Shown here: positions 2,494 through 10,257 of the stretch, in pieces
How positions within the stretch are numbered: position 1 is the first letter of the stretch
How the letters are laid out: each line of letters begins with the position of its first letter
From: a virus
Reading direction: 5' to 3' (one strand)
Length of the DNA stretch: 18,811 nucleotides
Virus genome (UHGV): UHGV-0168127
Notes under the pieces: model-generated
Databases searched by the model: none
Seen by the model: only the letters and a program-made list of their open reading frames with translations
What the model was told of the DNA's origin: nothing
Program-made: the position numbers and the translations under genes

Positions 2494-3176
2494 TGGTTGC
2501 CTCCTTTGCGAAGCTCTGCGGCGAAATATTCGGCTCTTTTTACGCATTCTTCATAAGCAGCTGCATCAGCAACATCCTCATCAATTAGAGTAAAATCTCG
2601 CTCACCTCTACACCACTGTGCAAACATCTCCACACCCTGCGACCGCACTTCAGCTAGGAAGGCGTCGGTGGCTGGGGTTTTGACAACAATGCTGTCACGC
2701 AGGATGAAGAAAGCATTGAGCATCCCTGTTTCCGGAATTTCAGCAGAATTAAAAGCATCTATCGCCAAGTCCATACTTGGACCAAGTGGCTGCGGATGTG
2801 CGCTTCGCAGAATCTCTTGCTCAGTGATTAGTGCTTGAATCTTTTCCACCAAGTCTGATGGCGAGACATCATCTGCGTCTTCCTGGAAGCCAAGCGCTGA
2901 ACGCACCGCCCGAGATTCAGACATTCTTTGGTATGCCTGTCCTGCTGACATGGAGTAGCGACCATTCTCCGCAGACAGCGCAGCGCACTTGGCCTCAAGG
3001 TTATCAATCGTGATTCCAGCAGAACGACACTCCAGCAACGCTGTTTCCAGTTTTGATTCGAGTTCACCGAACTTACGGACAAGATATTCAGCGTTTGTTT
3101 CGTTAACCTTTAAATCACTTGGGATGCATTTACCTTTAAGAAATCCATCCATCTCAATTAGTGACATTTGTTTCAT
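2490..3176 (-). CDS. Ea22-like protein (228 aa)
   Basis: Shares [11 protein letters not shown] and [12 protein letters not shown] motifs with the + strand ORF 13970..14584; position matches ea22 of lambdoid phages. Confidence 0.55.
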
Positions 3177-3337
3177 TTCTTCCCACTCCGCAACATCGCA
3201 TTCAGATATTTGTTTTGATTCACTGATGGAAAATAATTTCTCTTTAGCAATTCCTCTCTCGATGGCATTGGCTTTACGCGTTGGCGAATAATCATTTCTG
3301 CCGGAAGAATGCCGGGATTGTATGCAAGACCTCTCAT
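3173..3337 (-). CDS. Hypothetical small protein (54 aa)
   Basis: Manual [57 protein letters not shown]; AAAGAGGAA RBS; its stop overlaps the start of the Ea22-like gene (ATGA). Confidence 0.3.
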
Positions 3338-4168: not shown

Positions 4169-5057
4169 CCTCCAGTTTCGCTTTGCATTCTATGTAAATG
4201 GCTTGTACGTTCTGCTGCAATTTCATTCCAGATGTCAGGCGATATGCTTCTGCAAAATATCGCTTCAAATCATCCATGTTTTCTGCCTGAGCCATTTCAT
4301 CGCAAAGAAGTTGTGCTTTATCCATTATTTCCTGCTGGCGTTTCCGTTCATCTTCGCGGATATCTTCCTCTGATTTGTGCGGCATAACTGGTTCGGTCCA
4401 CACGCCTTCTTCTTCGTTTAGTACGTGAATAGCACTATCAAGGCGTGATGCCTTAGGCCAATACTTGCTTGCACGCTTTACGACTGTCTTTCGCGCCATC
4501 TCATTCCAGTGATTTACCCATGGTCCTTTATCGCTGAATGCCGCCTTGCTTGTTTTCCTTACAGCCTCAATTTCAGCCAGACTCATCTCTTCCGTTAGAT
4601 AATCACCTGCTGGCGTCTTAACTGTGCAGTAAACGCCAACGATATCACCACGGTCACCGAAGGCGTTGTATTTATGGGTTGGTGCTTTATCAAGCCCGTT
4701 TGACTCATAGGTATCGTTAGCATGAACAAGTTTTGCCTGACCCCATGAGATAACACCAGACTCCATTGCAATATGGAGCAATCCCATATAGCTGATATCA
4801 AGGCACACCATGCCGTCGCGAGGAACCAGATAAGCCAGTTTGCTGGCCGGGTTTAAGGTGATGCCGATCGCCGCAACATTGATGATGGCGTTCTGTGCGC
4901 TGGTTGGATTTGCCAGTGCTGTTTTAGCCAGGTAATCGTTTTTCTGGAAATACTGAATTGCAAACTGGCTTTCCTTAGCCCATGTCACCGTCTGTTCAGT
5001 CAATGCTCCGCAGAATAACTGCTCCTGCTGTTTAACGAATTCAACGATATTGCTCAT
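4146..5057 (-). CDS. recT: RecT-family single-strand annealing recombinase (303 aa)
   Basis: GPWVNHWNEMARKTVVKRASKYWP closely resembles the conserved RecT segment GPWVTHWEEMAKKTAIRRLFKYLP; gene sits where lambda has bet. Confidence 0.8.
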   Translation of the reverse strand: MSNIVEFVKQQEQLFCGALTEQTVTWAKESQFAIQYFQKNDYLAKTALANPTSAQNAIINVAAIGITLNPASKLAYLVPRDGMVCLDISYMGLLHIAMESGVISWGQAKLVHANDTYESNGLDKAPTHKYNAFGDRGDIVGVYCTVKTPAGDYLTEEMSLAEIEAVRKTSKAAFSDKGPWVNHWNEMARKTVVKRASKYWPKASRLDSAIHVLNEEEGVWTEPVMPHKSEEDIREDERKRQQEIMDKAQLLCDEMAQAENMDDLKRYFAEAYRLTSGMKLQQNVQAIYIECKAKLEVASEQTV

Positions 5058-5365
5058 GCAGCTTCTCCAAAAATGTGTCTGCGTTTGAATATTGCGAAGG
5101 CATATTCAGCCTTAACTCTTTCGGTTATTGCATCCCAGAACCATTCAGCGGCTTTTTCCTGATAGTTACAGTCATCATCTTCCAGCCAGTCGATAGCGTC
5201 CTTAGTGTGTTCATCTGGTTTATATGAGCGAAGCATTTCGCTTATTGGGTCGCAACGTTTGCAGAGGCGATCAACTTCACTGTTGATTCGTTCGTAATCT
5301 TCATCAGTAAAACTTGCGATTATTTGCGATATTTCACGCTTATCATTCAGAGTCAGAATCATCAT
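5054..5365 (-). CDS. Hypothetical acidic protein (103 aa) at the gam position
   Basis: Start overlaps the small-ORF cluster upstream and its stop overlaps the recT start (ATGA); acidic C-terminal half; no family recognised. Confidence 0.45.
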   Translation of the reverse strand: MMILTLNDKREISQIIASFTDEDYERINSEVDRLCKRCDPISEMLRSYKPDEHTKDAIDWLEDDDCNYQEKAAEWFWDAITERVKAEYAFAIFKRRHIFGEAA

Positions 5366-5446
5366 CTTTCTCCTGTTCTTTGTGCTGATTGAGCATTTTG
5401 TTCATCTGACGAATGAATTCTTCGTCTGACCAGTTATCTGTAAAAC

Positions 5447-5599
5447 TCATTTCCTGCGATACCACGGAAGGTTGATAGCTGATTTCATCGCTTTATTTGC
5501 TTCAAGCCACATTTTTGAATCACCAATAAATCGGGCTATTACTGCTTTGTTCTGTGCTGCACGAAGCATCTGGTGATTGATGGCTATTTCATTGCGCAT
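5447..5599 (-). CDS. kil: Kil-like small protein (50 aa), putative host cell-division inhibitor
   Basis: Manual ORF MRNEIAINHQMLRAAQNKAVIARFIGDSKMWLEANKAMKSAINLPWYRRK; overlaps the 3' end of cIII as kil does in lambda; the IA.FIGD..M segment matches my recollection of lambda Kil (TIATFIGDEKMF). Confidence 0.45.
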   Translation of the reverse strand: MRNEIAINHQMLRAAQNKAVIARFIGDSKMWLEANKAMKSAINLPWYRRK

Positions 5600-5715
5600 A
5601 ATAAGACCTCAACTCTTTTCCATCCGTCACGTAATTTACGGGTGATTCGTTCAAGTAAAGATTCATTTAGTTGGAAGGCACCCATGCGAGCGCCTCCCGC
5701 GATTGCGTAAATCAT
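5584..5715 (-). CDS. cIII: CIII-like protein (43 aa), putative FtsH inhibitor
   Basis: Manual ORF MIYAIAGGARMGAFQLNESLLERITRKLRDGWKRVEVLLCAMK with AAGGAA RBS; ESLLERITRKLRDGWKR matches the conserved core of lambda CIII as I recall it. Confidence 0.65.
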   Translation of the reverse strand: MIYAIAGGARMGAFQLNESLLERITRKLRDGWKRVEVLLCAMK

Positions 5716-5739: not shown

Positions 5740-6741
5740 TTAGTAGGTTATTTTTGTTGCGAATACTTCGCCTTTTACGATGGCTGTTATGATATTTTTA
5801 GCAACATCTTCTGATGCGCCAACCTTGATAAGGTCAGCAAGTATTTTGTTATTTACTTCTTTCCGGTGAGCTTTATCCTTTGCTCTACGCTCTTCTTCGT
5901 CCTTGATTCTTTTTTCTTCTGCTATTCTGGCTTGCTCTTTTGCTTCAGCCTCGCGCAGGATTCGTTCTGCCTCCTCCTGTGCTTTACGGCGTTCTGCTTC
6001 AATTGCCGCATGCTTTTCTCTTTCAGCTCGTTCTGCTGCCTCTTTTGCTTCGCGCTGTGCTCGTTGCTCGGCTTCAATGCGTTCACGCTCTGCACGTTCC
6101 GCTGCGGCCTTAGCTTCTGCTTCACGGCGCGCTGCGGCTTCAATCTCTGCTTTGTGCTTCGCTTCGGCATCGCGTCGGGCTTGCTCTGCCGCTTCACTCT
6201 TAATGCGCTCTTCATGCTCACGTTGAGCCTGTTCCGCCTGGCGGCGCTGCTCTTCGCGGTCACGGTCGAAATCCTTGTTCATCAGCAGAGCCATTTCGTG
6301 GTCTGCTTCGAACTTGGCCGCCAACTCCTGATCGAACTTGATGTTCATTTCCAGCGCTTCGGCGTGCAACGCGTTCATGGCTTCTTCAGCCTTAATGCGC
6401 TCCTGCTCGGCTTCCCATTCGGTGAGTGGGCGGCGGGTGGCATCACGTAGCTCGTCGCAGGCATCAACGAAACGCTTAATTTCCGCCTCAGCGGGGCGCA
6501 CAGCCTCTTTCAGGCGCTTCAGGTACTCACGCCCCGGCTTTTCGATTGCCGTCTTGCTGCGCGACACCTGCGCCGCCAGAGAGGCGACACGGTCACGGCC
6601 TTTCTTCGTTGACAGGTCCGGCACTTCGTTTACTGCCTGGCGGATTTGCTCGAGGTAAGCGTCAAGGCCGCCCGCTACGTAAAGCGCTGGCGCCTGCTCC
6701 GGCGTGATTTCGATGACAGTTAAGTCCATTACTTCGCTCAT
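5740..6741 (-). CDS. Coiled-coil protein (about 333 aa) with a long E/A/R/K-rich repetitive C-terminal half
   Basis: Track ORF 5740..6849 trimmed to the ATG at 6741 (AGGAGA RBS), because the upstream part is occupied by another small gene; low-complexity charged repeats generate the many shadow ORFs on both strands in 5866..6658. Confidence 0.55.
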   Translation of the reverse strand: MSEVMDLTVIEITPEQAPALYVAGGLDAYLEQIRQAVNEVPDLSTKKGRDRVASLAAQVSRSKTAIEKPGREYLKRLKEAVRPAEAEIKRFVDACDELRDATRRPLTEWEAEQERIKAEEAMNALHAEALEMNIKFDQELAAKFEADHEMALLMNKDFDRDREEQRRQAEQAQREHEERIKSEAAEQARRDAEAKHKAEIEAAARREAEAKAAAERAERERIEAEQRAQREAKEAAERAEREKHAAIEAERRKAQEEAERILREAEAKEQARIAEEKRIKDEEERRAKDKAHRKEVNNKILADLIKVGASEDVAKNIITAIVKGEVFATKITY

Positions 6742-6811
6742 GGTTTCTCCTGAAATTTGGATGTGCAGATCCCGCCCGCTTTTAGCCAGGCCGATCGGTT
6801 GAATAGGGGAA

Positions 6812-6952
6812 TTAGGCTGTTTTTCTATGCCACGGATAACCGATGGCAACCTTCATTTCGTCGTAGGCTGCCATCCACATGGCGCCATCACCGATAAACA
6901 GGGCAATGGCTGCTTTGCTCTGCGCGGCGCGCAGCAGGTGATGATTGATCAT
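6812..6952 (-). CDS. Kil-like paralog (46 aa)
   Basis: Manual ORF MINHHLLRAAQSKAAIALFIGDGAMWMAAYDEMKVAIGYPWHRKTA; start overlaps the upstream stop (ATGA); clearly paralogous to the ORF at 5447..5599. Confidence 0.4.
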   Translation of the reverse strand: MINHHLLRAAQSKAAIALFIGDGAMWMAAYDEMKVAIGYPWHRKTA

Positions 6953-7108: not shown

Positions 7109-7318
7109 TCACACCACCTTGAATAAGAACCAGACCATACCGCACACAATCAGGCCCACAATGGTTATTGCGGAAGACATGCGTACATGGTCAATGGCTA
7201 GTTTTGAAATTGGCTGGCGATGTTCTTTTTTCGTCAGCGAGTTGATTGCTATGCCGAGCAGAAACGTCCCGACAAACCATAATGCGTATATCTTTAAGCC
7301 CAACTCCAAATCACTCAT
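7109..7318 (-). CDS. Small membrane protein (69 aa, two predicted transmembrane helices)
   Basis: Two hydrophobic stretches (IYALWFVGTFLLGIAI and AITIVGLIVCGMVWFLF) separated by a basic loop. Confidence 0.45.
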   Translation of the reverse strand: MSDLELGLKIYALWFVGTFLLGIAINSLTKKEHRQPISKLAIDHVRMSSAITIVGLIVCGMVWFLFKVV

Positions 7319-7453: not shown

Positions 7454-7475
7454 AAAAAACCCGCCGTGGCGGGTC
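7454..7475 (-). terminator. Intrinsic terminator inside the leftward operon
   Basis: On the - strand GACCCGCC-AC-GGCGGGT hairpin directly followed by TTTTTTCAT, immediately after the stop of the 7477..7797 gene. Confidence 0.45.
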
Positions 7476-7476
7476 T

Positions 7477-7797
7477 TCAGAAATAGTCTTTATGGTCGTG
7501 CATCGCTTGCTGGAGGATCACCTTTGCATCTTCAAAGCTGGCAGATTCAAAAGCCTCTCTTATGGCCTTAGCCAGGCAAGTCGCATCGCTTTCATAGTCA
7601 TCAGCTCTGCTTTCCCAGTTTGATGCCTCTTCTTCAGCCTCATAAAGGCGATCGCCATACTCGCACTCGAGTTCCTGGCGCACTTCATCGCGAAGCTTCT
7701 CCTTGATGATTTCGGAGGCTTCTTCAATCGGCATTGTTTCCAGAATCGTCTCTGGCTGATGAGTGCCGTATTTCAGTGAGATGTCAGTAGCAAACAT
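7477..7797 (-). CDS. Hypothetical highly acidic protein (106 aa)
   Basis: Track ORF trimmed to the ATG at 7797 (GGAGGT RBS); roughly 30% Asp/Glu. Confidence 0.45.
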   Translation of the reverse strand: MFATDISLKYGTHQPETILETMPIEEASEIIKEKLRDEVRQELECEYGDRLYEAEEEASNWESRADDYESDATCLAKAIREAFESASFEDAKVILQQAMHDHKDYF

Positions 7798-7806
7798 GCA
7801 ACCTCC

Positions 7807-7835
7807 AAAAAAATTGCCCTCACACTGGAGGGCAA
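7807..7835 (-). terminator. Terminator-like hairpin plus T-run just upstream of the acidic-protein gene
   Basis: On the - strand TTGCCCTC-CAGTGT-GAGGGCAA (8-bp stem) followed by TTTTTTT. Confidence 0.35.
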
Positions 7836-7928
7836 AGAAGATTTCCAATAATCAGAACAAGTCGGCTCCTGTTTAGTTACGAGCGACATTGCTCCGTGTA
7901 TTCACTCGTTGGAATGAATACACAGTGC

Positions 7929-8141
7929 TTATTCGCGAGCTTTGAGCATGGCATCAGCAATAAAGTAGGCATCATCTGCTAATTCTTTGTACTGTGGTGA
8001 ATTCTGTCCACCACCAAAGGAATGTCCGTCCCATCTGCGCACTATTGCTGCCATAGCCTTAGCAGCGAAGTAATCACGTAATGTCGCATCACTTGCCATT
8101 TCTGGGCGTTTGATATCTTCTTCATAAAACTCGCACATCAT
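7929..8141 (-). CDS. Hypothetical protein (70 aa)
   Basis: Track ORF; its start overlaps the stop of the upstream gene. Confidence 0.4.
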   Translation of the reverse strand: MMCEFYEEDIKRPEMASDATLRDYFAAKAMAAIVRRWDGHSFGGGQNSPQYKELADDAYFIADAMLKARE

Positions 8142-8422
8142 TCACCTCCCAGAGCCTTGCTGATTGCTGCCTTGGCTCGTTTGTATTCGGTTAACTCTCT
8201 GCACCCTTCGTCATGCTCGTAAAGGAAGACAAGCTCTTGCAGTGCTTCAAGCAAATCAGGAGCTGCTGCTATCAGTAGCGCATCCTCCCTTTCATTTCTT
8301 GTTGCTGCTTCAATGTATGTGTCACCAATCGTCACACCATGGAACGTAGTCATCATCTCGTTGACGTTTCTAACCGTGTACTTCCATTTACCAGGCGTAC
8401 CCTTAAACTCTTTCATATCCAC
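8138..8422 (-). CDS. Hypothetical protein (94 aa)
   Basis: Track ORF; overlaps the downstream gene start by 4 nt. Confidence 0.4.
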   Translation of the reverse strand: MDMKEFKGTPGKWKYTVRNVNEMMTTFHGVTIGDTYIEAATRNEREDALLIAAAPDLLEALQELVFLYEHDEGCRELTEYKRAKAAISKALGGE

Positions 8423-8463
8423 CTCTGTTGTTTATGCCAAAAATAAAGGCCGACTATTCGGCC

Positions 8464-8631
8464 TTAAAATCCTGAATATTCGCGAAGAGATTCGATAATT
8501 TCCTCGCAGTCGATAAGTAGTTCGTCAGGTTCATCTTCTCGATTTTTAAGTGCCTCAATGTTCCCAGCTAACTGGCGAAGCATCATTGCTTGCCATTCAG
8601 GGTCGAAGCTGTCTGGTATTTCAATTTCCAT
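8464..8631 (-). CDS. Hypothetical acidic small protein (55 aa)
   Basis: Manual ORF MEIEIPDSFDPEWQAMMLRQLAGNIEALKNREDEPDELLIDCEEIIESLREYSGF with GAGGTG RBS; missed by the track (below 60 aa). Confidence 0.35.
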   Translation of the reverse strand: MEIEIPDSFDPEWQAMMLRQLAGNIEALKNREDEPDELLIDCEEIIESLREYSGF

Positions 8632-8693: not shown

Positions 8694-8918
8694 TCATAAT
8701 TCACTCTTCAATACTTCCAACTTACTAATCGCCGATAGATATCCGCGCTGATAGGGCATCATCATTCCTTCGAGCTTGCCACTTCTTAACTCCTCCCTGA
8801 GCAATTGTATTGCTTGATCAATAACCTCTGCCTTAGCGTCCTTTATGGCTTGCTTGCGGGGCTTTGCTTTCTGCTTTGGCAGATTTCTCAAGCATGATGG
8901 AATGTATGTCTGAGTCAT
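8694..8918 (-). CDS. First gene of the leftward operon: small basic protein (74 aa), candidate N-analogous antiterminator, function unproven
   Basis: AAGAGGA RBS upstream of the ATG at 8918; K/R-rich N-terminal stretch (LRNLPKQKAKPRKQAIKDAK); first ORF downstream of the OL region. No similarity to lambda or P22 N that I can recognise. Confidence 0.35.
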   Translation of the reverse strand: MTQTYIPSCLRNLPKQKAKPRKQAIKDAKAEVIDQAIQLLREELRSGKLEGMMMPYQRGYLSAISKLEVLKSEL

Positions 8919-9240
8919 AAAAAATCCTCTTGTGATTCAGCCCAGCCCACTCAACTTCGAATGGACTGGAATAAATCTGTTTGCGCTTCGCACCTCTCAT
9001 CCCGCCAGTGTTGCCCGTTCCCACGCCTTTATCGCTCTCGCGAGGGGGTAGCCTCACACCGACCGGATCGCGCCCGGTGCTGCGCCGAATTTGTACGTTG
9101 GGGTCTAAACAGGATTACTGAGTGCTGTTCCGACTTTGCATGTTGTTAAAAAGCAGGCGACTTGCTGTCCGCCGCTGGCTAACTTCGCTCAGCTGTCGAT
9201 GTTTCGTTTCGATGGATTGATAATAGCGATGAGTATTGTT

Positions 9241-9282
9241 TATAGCAATACGTATTGATATTAAATAATAGCAATTGCTATT
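9241..9282. promoter_or_regulatory. OL-like operator cluster (pL region)
   Basis: Perfect palindromes CAATACGTATTG (9246..9257) and AATAGCAATTGCTATT (9267..9282), built from the same half-sites as the operators between cI and cro. Confidence 0.5.
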
Positions 9283-9393
9283 AATGCGTTGATAGCTAAA
9301 GGAATTTATTTGGATATTTTTTCGCGGGATTGAGATTCAGATCGTTTTTTTACTGCGGCGGGTATTGCTGTGACGAATGGGCTGGCTGCGGGC

Positions 9394-9441: not shown

Positions 9442-10146
9442 TTAACCGTGTTTTCTGTATGTCTGAGGCATGCTACCAATCACCTTGCCGAATATGAGTA
9501 TCCTGTTCATTTCTTCTTTTTCGATTGGCTCCCACGGGCGATAAGTCTGATTGTCGGAGATGACCAACAGCTTATCTTTCATCTTCTGGAGGCGTTTAAC
9601 GTGGGAAGTATCGTCGTAGATAAAGGCGTAGATCCCGTCACCATCAAAATGTTGGACGCTGATGTCGACGAACAATAAGTCGCCTGGTTCAATGGTCCCG
9701 GACATGCTGTCTCCGCGAACATTAATGATTCTGATCTGCTCAGCCTTCCTGCCATTAAACATCCGACGAGCATCTTCCACTGAGTATTCCACGGATCTAA
9801 GCACCTCTACAAATTCGCTGTTGATGGCTCCTGGCCCGGCGCTTACGTAAAAGTCTAGCGCCTCAATGCGGAATGTGTCAGTAGGGGCCAGCTCTGTTTT
9901 CGGCTGCGAAATTGCGGGCATTTGACCATCTTCACGCATTGGGCCAACTCCGGTTGAAAGCCACTCAGTGCGAACGCCAAGCGCATTGGCGATCTCAACG
10001 ATTTTAGTTGAGCCTCGGGCATTGCCACTGGTCAGCCTCCAGATGGTGGGTTGAGCAACGCCAGACGCCTTAGCTAAAGCGCCCTGAGACATGCCAGATA
10101 GTTCCATCGCCTGATTCAGGCGTTCTGCAAGAGTTTCTTTTTTCAT
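9442..10146 (-). CDS. cI: CI-type repressor: N-terminal HTH plus C-terminal S24 (LexA-like) autopeptidase domain
   Basis: Track ORF trimmed to the ATG at 10146 (MKKETLAERL...); HTH segment MSQGALAKASGVAQPTIWRL; GDSM and KRL motifs consistent with a Ser/Lys catalytic dyad; divergent from the cro-like gene across an operator region. Confidence 0.85.
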   Translation of the reverse strand: MKKETLAERLNQAMELSGMSQGALAKASGVAQPTIWRLTSGNARGSTKIVEIANALGVRTEWLSTGVGPMREDGQMPAISQPKTELAPTDTFRIEALDFYVSAGPGAINSEFVEVLRSVEYSVEDARRMFNGRKAEQIRIINVRGDSMSGTIEPGDLLFVDISVQHFDGDGIYAFIYDDTSHVKRLQKMKDKLLVISDNQTYRPWEPIEKEEMNRILIFGKVIGSMPQTYRKHG

Positions 10147-10154
10147 GAGTTTTA

Positions 10155-10226
10155 ATTTATACGCTTGCGTATTGATGGTCAAAACACGTTTAGCTATTGC
10201 CTAAATCAATACGCATTGCTATTATC
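10155..10226. promoter_or_regulatory. OR-like operator and divergent promoter region (candidate pRM leftward and pR rightward)
   Basis: Palindrome ATACGCTTGCGTAT (10159..10172) and a related site near 10207..10226. Rightward promoter candidate: -35 TTGCCT (10197..10202), 17-nt spacer, -10 TATTAT (10220..10225). Leftward candidate: -35 TTGACC (complement of 10177..10182), -10 ATAAAT (complement of 10155..10160), placing the start at or near the cI ATG (leaderless, as for lambda pRM). Confidence 0.5.
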
Positions 10227-10257
10227 AATTCACACCAATACTCATAGGAATTGGAAG

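Follow-up and report, generated by a model that had tools for sequence, protein, structure and literature searches.

Four small early genes and a PreS small RNA in a probable ral-ea10 accessory region of the lambdoid virus genome UHGV-0168127

What do small genes do that lie just behind the early leftward promoter, pL, of a lambdoid phage and resemble nothing of known function? The question is raised by the virus genome UHGV-0168127, of which a stretch of 18,811 nucleotides (nt), referred to here as the window, was analyzed and identified as the early region of a lambdoid phage. Between positions 7477 and 8631 four consecutive open reading frames (ORFs), orf55, orf92, orf70 and orf106, are found on the minus strand downstream of pL. 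A first-pass annotation, made from the DNA letters and their ORFs, had taken them for candidate anti-defence or host-takeover genes. We find in the span a known accessory region with a new set of alleles, together with a known small RNA (sRNA), and judge it probable that this 1.15-kb stretch is the phage's version of the lambda ral-ea10 accessory region in the early pL operon. Its features, in the order of transcription, are the following.

8464..8631, minus strand: orf55, a very acidic protein of 55 amino acids (aa) in the ral slot; ATG start, ribosome-binding site GAGGTG; phrog_7393, E 5e-24
8438..8465, minus strand: intrinsic terminator after orf55; stem 8446-8465 with a T-rich tail; -12.5 kcal/mol, z -4.45
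8138..8416, minus strand: orf92; Pfam PF27050 (Phage_P22_Y8K6), function unknown; phrog_1273
7929..8141, minus strand: orf70, which overlaps the orf92 stop by 4 nt (ATGA); phrog_2201, E 6e-20
7807..7928, minus strand: homolog of the lambda ral-ea10 spacer with the gene of the sRNA PreS/LPR1; 99.2% identity, 121 nt
7477..7797, minus strand: orf106, an acidic 106-aa protein in the ea10 slot; phrog_13002, E 1e-52
7454..7473, minus strand: intrinsic terminator directly after the orf106 stop; CCCGCC-ACG-GCGGG followed by T6; -15 kcal/mol, z -3.35

The assignment is carried by two noncoding modules of lambda. Window positions 7808-7928 align with lambda 33925-34045, the spacer between ral and ea10, at 99.2% identity over 121 nt, and positions 8424-8457 correspond to lambda 34055-34087, just downstream of the ral stop codon, over 34 nt at 94%. 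The latter match consists of the 3' half of the orf55 terminator and the adjoining GGCATAAACAACAGA. The junction in lambda reads …GGCATAAATAACAGA / ATAAACACTGCACTG…, and at the slash the window contains the 490-bp orf92-orf70 pair, where lambda has only about 10 nt. Since the noncoding flanks are lambda-like, the alignment shows orf55 to occupy the ral slot and orf106 the ea10 slot, with orf92-orf70 as an extra cassette absent from lambda. The first-pass annotation had proposed a ral-type position for these genes, and the lambda noncoding modules around ral and ea10 that flank them bear this out more precisely than had been claimed. The likeness to the lambda arrangement of ral, PreS (LPR1)/tL2a and ea10 comprises the same strand and order, both noncoding modules, PreS and its terminator, and a downstream gene (orf106 here, ea10 there) that begins right after the terminator T run. 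The protein genes, in contrast, all differ; orf55 and ral, and likewise orf106 and ea10, are without detectable similarity, and there is no N gene upstream in the window.

Gene content between these same conserved flanks differs among related phages. The contents of the slot were compared in lambda, HK225, mEp213, Bas106 and Sf101, and in prophages of E. coli, Salmonella and Enterobacter, and the occupants found beside the conserved modules were ral, a Zn-ribbon protein, orf184, DUF7446, a 156-aa protein and a 322-aa protein. In HK225 (L003), the orf55/ral slot contains at 3141-3329 another unrelated occupant, a cysteine-rich (CxxC…CxxC) protein of 62 aa.

PreS is, in our assessment, the sole element of the span with an experimentally supported host-takeover function, that support coming from lambda. 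LPR1, since renamed PreS, is an Hfq-dependent lambda sRNA produced during the lytic cycle. The transcript is about 88 nt long, has the tL2a terminator as its 3' end and is shortened by processing to about 68 nt. By pairing, it opens the ribosome-binding site of the host dnaN gene and thereby increases translation of the beta-clamp, and it represses alaS (bioRxiv 10.1101/2024.10.31.621285). The same authors used an identity of at least 92% as their criterion of conservation (bioRxiv 10.1101/2024.10.31.621285), and the window copy has 99.2%. This copy lies on the transcribed strand of the pL operon, with orf70 (not ral) on one side and the gene in the ea10 slot on the other. The module consists of a perfect 14-bp hairpin 3' of orf70 (7894-7925), an sRNA body at approximately 7807-7894 if the length is 88 nt, and the tL2a stem (7814-7835) with its U tail (7807-7813). 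Its predicted fold is as expected, with a seed-bearing body, the GC hairpin at 7814-7835 and a U7 tail, and within tL2a the differences from lambda are confined to the tail and the stem base. Near-identity to lambda thus suggests that Hfq binding, dnaN activation and lytic specificity, all documented there, may be carried over to the window copy.

A total of 327 phage records contain the 121-nt module, and almost all of them have 95-100% identity. Approximately 3,700 E. coli genomes matched a wider 2.7-kb query in short pieces, and the module explains most of these matches. PreS had no Rfam match, even at E<=1, and is not in Rfam 15. A diverged PreS-like element precedes the orf106 homologs in HK225 (approximately 2976-3145) and in two further loci, L005 and L009 (approximately 4830-5000). 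This element can be aligned with lambda PreS over its 3' half, and in its terminator stem a U-A pair has given way to G-C, a compensatory change; this suggests a second class of PreS variants in HK225 and Enterobacter-type prophages. In HK022 (L020), a PreS module 96% identical to that of the window (4494-4601) directly abuts an IS903 insertion (4602-5658).

The four ORFs themselves are genuine. They exist at the positions first reported, and the lengths of 55, 70 and 106 aa stand; the length of 94 aa given for the remaining one does not. That form begins at a GTG (8138-8422), whereas the database form has 92 aa from the ATG at 8416. Since 666 blocks of the contig collection list a 100%-identical 92-aa protein (P0043), this ATG is almost certainly the orf92 start. 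Each of the four matches a PHROG family of unknown function, with E values from 1e-20 to 1e-52. The ratio of nonsynonymous to synonymous substitution rates (dN/dS) was 0.13-0.24 for orf106 and 0.08, at a dS of 1.3, for orf55, values that indicate purifying selection and thus real genes, not chance ORFs. The strong acidity ascribed to the 55-aa and 106-aa products was confirmed: orf55 has an isoelectric point (pI) of 4.05 and a net charge of -12, orf106 a pI of 4.33 and a net charge of -17, and they are the two most acidic of the 37 putative proteins in the window. The orf92 and orf70 products are unexceptional (pI about 5, net charge -4 each). Three intrinsic terminators are present, after orf55 (stem 8446-8465), before orf106 (stem 7814-7835, T run 7807-7813) and after orf106 (stem 7460-7473, T run 7454-7459), so that the terminator-like hairpins described on both sides of the 106-aa gene do exist. 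A consensus sigma-70 scan predicted no promoter inside the four-gene cluster.

Searches for relatives of known function returned little. Pfam (in a copy without the PF27050 model), NCBIfam and PADLOC gave nothing above threshold for eight small ORFs, and sequence and profile searches of the PDB with all four families gave only compositional coiled-coil noise. Nothing was found in the literature under the accessions or the family names. The earlier statement that none of the four matches a nameable family was therefore nearly right, the exception being orf92, which belongs to a Pfam family, PF27050, of unknown function.

The orf55 family comprises 18 homolog clusters from Enterobacteriaceae (Salmonella, Kluyvera, Leclercia), all of 55-59 aa except for one 72-aa call, with 24 invariant positions in their alignment. 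To the eye, this alignment suggests a pair of helices with an acidic loop between them. The gene was always pL-proximal in the Salmonella prophages examined, and in one homolog locus (L023) a terminator follows it as well. Neither sequence nor profile searches of Pfam and PDB found a relative of orf55; there was no match to the Ral family (PF11058), and BLASTP gave no similarity to lambda Ral. A relationship to T7 gp5.9 was considered and rejected when no alignment was obtained with a presumed gp5.9 sequence.

The 24 homologs of orf106 are found in Enterobacter and E. coli; in addition there are gp38 of HK225 (99%) and 40%-identical genes in some Klebsiella phages. The start at 7797 is the conserved one. 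Longer forms (123 aa from a TTG, and 145-184 aa in databases) were rejected as over-extensions through the upstream terminator and the ribosome-binding site. In every case the homologs are part of a pL operon and stand immediately behind a PreS-like terminator. An AlphaFold2 (AF2) model of orf106 had a predicted local distance difference test (pLDDT) score of 80 and a predicted template modeling score (pTM) of 0.42, and consists of one 61-residue helix (residues 24-84) and short helices; the protein is probably a coiled-coil oligomer. No alignment was obtained between orf106 and either orf184 or lambda Ea10.

The orf92-orf70 cassette has a different character. PF27050 is recorded as a precomputed match on all 120 listed homologs of orf92, including P0043, and 514 homologs were found in total. 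In their alignment (A3), residues 1-60 are nearly invariant, residues from approximately 61 to 83 are hypervariable and differ in length as well as in sequence, and conservation returns in the last 12 aa. Among 91 parsed homologs there were 42 distinct variable segments, of roughly 15 unrelated types. At the DNA level, loci that carry the window's segment are essentially identical throughout, and L001 is near-identical up to a sharp boundary beyond which its DNA is unrelated. On this comparison the segments are recombinational, intragenic cassette swaps and not the product of point-mutation drift. In a low-confidence model of orf92, the variable part forms the tip of a helical hairpin and the N terminus is of beta structure. 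Kinship of orf92 with the Ea22-like protein of the window, considered for the similar 'IAAAP..LLEAL' motif in the latter, was dropped when neither BLASTP nor hhalign gave a significant match.

The 4-nt ATGA overlap suggests that orf92 and orf70 are probably translationally coupled. The orf70 family consists of phage proteins of approximately 70-90 aa and unknown function, with the consensus GGPAFP…GMTLRDYFAAKAM…AY..ADAMLKAR, and has 242 representative clusters at E<=1e-3. The terminal helices are conserved in the alignment (A2) and the middle is variable; in one locus the middle is also swapped. The same two-gene arrangement is found in Sf101 (AII27858/AII27857, the orf123/orf57 of the Silas screen), where orf57 has 61% identity to orf70 and orf123 shares with orf92 the C-terminal half AAPDLLEALQ…SAISKALGGE. 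The Sf101 alleles diverge from those of the window in the N-terminal domain of orf123 and in the middle segment of orf57. If the two products interacted, their variable segments might be expected to co-vary, but the few available loci, the Sf101 pair among them, gave no indication of this. Two distant members of the orf70 family (P0211 and P0271) are fused to an RNA_pol_A_CTD-like helix-hairpin-helix domain, at the C terminus in one and at the N terminus in the other.

The setting of the cluster within the early region is defined by the following features upstream.

8694..8918, minus strand: orf74, the gene of a basic 74-aa protein and the first ORF downstream of the pL leader; phrog_5305, E 7e-38
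9213-9285, minus strand: oL/pL region, driver of the leftward operon; promoter-like site 9248-9220 and operator repeats
9442-10182, minus strand: S24/helix-turn-helix cI-like repressor gene

A cro-like gene lies opposite the repressor gene, and the operator repeats of 9213-9285 recur at 10195-10250. With the pL-like promoter at 9248-9220, these confirm the promoter-proximal place in a leftward operon that had been assigned to the four genes. The minus-strand operon left of pL contains orf74, the four genes, a small membrane protein, Kil and a 369-aa coiled-coil protein, and continues with a CIII-like segment, RecT, Gp157, an Ea22-like protein and others. Although outside 7477-8631, orf74 is part of the same gene string, and its homologs lie directly 3' of the N gene in mEp213 and E. 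coli prophages. The pL leader (8919-9220, minus strand; approximately 9000-9215 lying directly downstream of pL, and 300 nt in all before orf74) is homologous to the phi80 pL leader, and a nutL boxA (TGCTTTTTA) is conserved in it. A GC-rich block of about 100 nt in the leader is also conserved, with approximately 78% identity to Stx2a phages. HK225 likewise has no N-like ORF after its phi80-type pL leader. An HK022-type put RNA as a replacement antiterminator in the leader was considered and rejected for want of any similarity.

Further along the operon, a 69-aa basic protein (phrog_25975) with two hydrophobic segments by eye is encoded at 7109-7318, directly after the orf106 terminator. Two genes of the kil type may be present. 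A PF06301 Lambda_Kil protein of L009 has the same sequence as the 46-aa product of 6812-6952, and a 50-aa ORF adjoins the cIII-like ORF, which holds 48 nt identical to lambda cIII; this pair of ORFs lies at 5584-5715 and 5447-5599. Between the two kil-type candidates lies the Glu/Ala/Arg-rich 369-aa coiled-coil protein (5740-6849).

Several explanations other than accessory genes of the ral-ea10 region have to be weighed. The acidity of orf55 and orf106 had led to the proposal that they are DNA mimics, that is, that one or both block type I restriction, BREX or RecBCD at the DNA-binding site in the manner of Ocr, ArdA or gp5.9. Their content of acidic residues is 26-29%, near the 29% of Ocr; they are small, helical and early, as are T7 Ocr, plasmid ArdA and T7 gp5.9; they occupy the exact ral and ea10 slots; no protein in the window is more acidic; and the long-helix model of orf106 would be compatible with an elongated dimer. 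The strong net negative charge of the mimics is found in orf55 and orf106 only, not in orf92 or orf70. However, no similarity in sequence, profile or fold to these mimics was found. The profile and fold comparisons with Ocr/ArdA-like proteins by which the first-pass annotation proposed to check its idea gave no match, the profiles covering all four families and the folds covering orf106 and, at low confidence, orf92. Pfam, NCBIfam, PADLOC and PDB yielded no mimic relatives, and BLASTP detected no similarity of orf55, orf92, orf70 or orf106 to Ocr, Arn, Ral, Gam, Abc2, gp17 or orf184. A Foldseek search of the orf106 model against PDB and BFVD had no match at E<=0.001, whether to Ocr, ArdA, Gam or any other structure, and one of the orf92 model (pLDDT 64) against PDB had none. 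Acidity by itself is common in small early phage proteins, and Ral, the known anti-restriction gene of the slot, is basic and no mimic. The DNA-mimic or anti-restriction reading is therefore not supported, and we consider it quite unlikely. A second proposal was that orf106 is an independently regulated cassette, an autonomous moron (promoter, gene and terminator) expressed independently of pL, for example from a prophage. The terminators on both sides of orf106 fit this, as does a mosaic joint that coincides with the end of the upstream T run, and orf106 does have its own downstream terminator (7454-7473), which is identical in HK225 and replaced by a different terminator at the same place in L005 and L009. 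Since the spacer encodes PreS and ends at tL2a, though, the upstream bracketing hairpin is the PreS/tL2a terminator, part of a module conserved across hundreds of lambdoid phages. No sigma-70-like promoter was found in a consensus scan between this terminator and the orf106 ribosome-binding site in the window, HK225 or L009. That binding site begins right after the T run, and ea10 in lambda is preceded by the same layout of terminator, ribosome-binding site and gene. An autonomous moron is thus highly improbable, and orf106 is better regarded as a delayed-early gene whose expression would need terminator read-through.

The four proteins might instead serve phage development (replication, recombination, lysogeny or cell division), like the neighboring CIII, Kil and Gam-type genes. 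Such a role would suit an operon that also contains Kil, CIII, RecT and Gp157, and an adjoining sRNA that boosts replication; the alpha-CTD-like fusion of two orf70-family members hints at DNA or transcription machinery, and the relatives that have been screened have no reported defence phenotype. It is made unlikely by the absence of homology to any such regulator, and by a patchy distribution and free swapping between otherwise similar phages, which fit an accessory role. We give a near-negligible probability to the view that some of these ORFs have no function, being artifacts of annotation or genes in decay. They are short, they had no domain match in the Pfam copy searched, and the database starts of orf106 are inconsistent. 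Against this stand the dN/dS values of 0.08-0.24 for orf55 and orf106 at dS of up to 1.4, strong ribosome-binding sites, and conservation at the family level for all four, as seen in the PHROG matches, the orf92 homologs and the orf70 clusters.

The explanation we favor remains that the four are accessory genes of the ral-ea10 region, and a mode of action can be proposed on that basis. They would be dispensable, delayed-early accessory proteins whose transcription from pL depends on read-through of the three intrinsic terminators by RNA polymerase. Judged from the two AF2 models and the sequence pattern, they seem too small and too largely helical for enzymes (orf92 with its low-confidence beta N terminus), and their most likely action would be stoichiometric binding to host or rival-phage proteins. 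In this scheme the active form of orf55 and of orf106 would be an acidic helical oligomer, and orf92 and orf70, with conserved segments and swapped variable segments, would be suited to changing targets. The likeliest theme would be counter-defence or inter-phage competition, with no specific target nameable, because the known occupants of the same variable slot, ral in lambda, gene 17 in P22 and orf184 in mEp213, act in this way; orf184 triggers the gop-beta-cII abortive-infection (Abi) system (Silas et al., bioRxiv 10.1101/2023.04.06.535777). P22 gp17 and mEp213 orf184 resemble orf106 in size (approximately 104-107 aa), in a net charge of -17 and in their place in the same ral-containing accessory region; they have no BLASTP similarity to orf106 or orf55, and their phenotypes are not transferable. 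More generally, the positional analogs Ea10 (-14), gp17 (-17), orf184 (-17) and orf106 (-17) are all 104-122 aa and without detectable similarity.

Several observations weigh against this account. Position is a weak predictor, since other genes in the slot have unrelated or unknown roles, that of ea10 itself being 'not fully understood' (bioRxiv 10.1101/2024.10.31.621285). An anti-defence role for any of the four proteins is a positional guess. Sf101 orf57 and orf123 were part of a 200-gene accessory screen and are absent from the genes with reported phenotypes (bioRxiv 10.1101/2023.04.06.535777); the alleles screened differ from the window alleles of orf70 and orf92. The AF2 model of orf92 is of low confidence (pLDDT 64), and PreS function in the window is extrapolated from 99% identity to lambda. 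There is also no N ORF between pL and orf74 to account for read-through of the three terminators. It is nevertheless plausible, at a probability well short of even, that at least one of the four is a counter-defence or defence-triggering protein. A bolder version seems to us quite unlikely: that orf55 and/or orf106 are founders of new families of acidic helical decoys against a defence or repair complex (restriction-modification, RecBCD, BREX or an Abi sensor), with the swapped orf92 hairpin tip and orf70 middle as specificity determinants that track variable targets.

If it were true that one of the acidic proteins is a counter-defence protein, it would be a new inhibitor family in a slot from which ral, gp17 and orf184 are already familiar, and two cultured phages, HK225 for orf106 and Bas106 for orf92-orf70, are available for testing. 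The main value of the analysis is corrective. The terminators that bracket orf106 are operon terminators and not the borders of an independent cassette, the locus as a whole is read as the known ral-ea10 region, and its documented host-takeover element is PreS, which a protein-only reading had missed.

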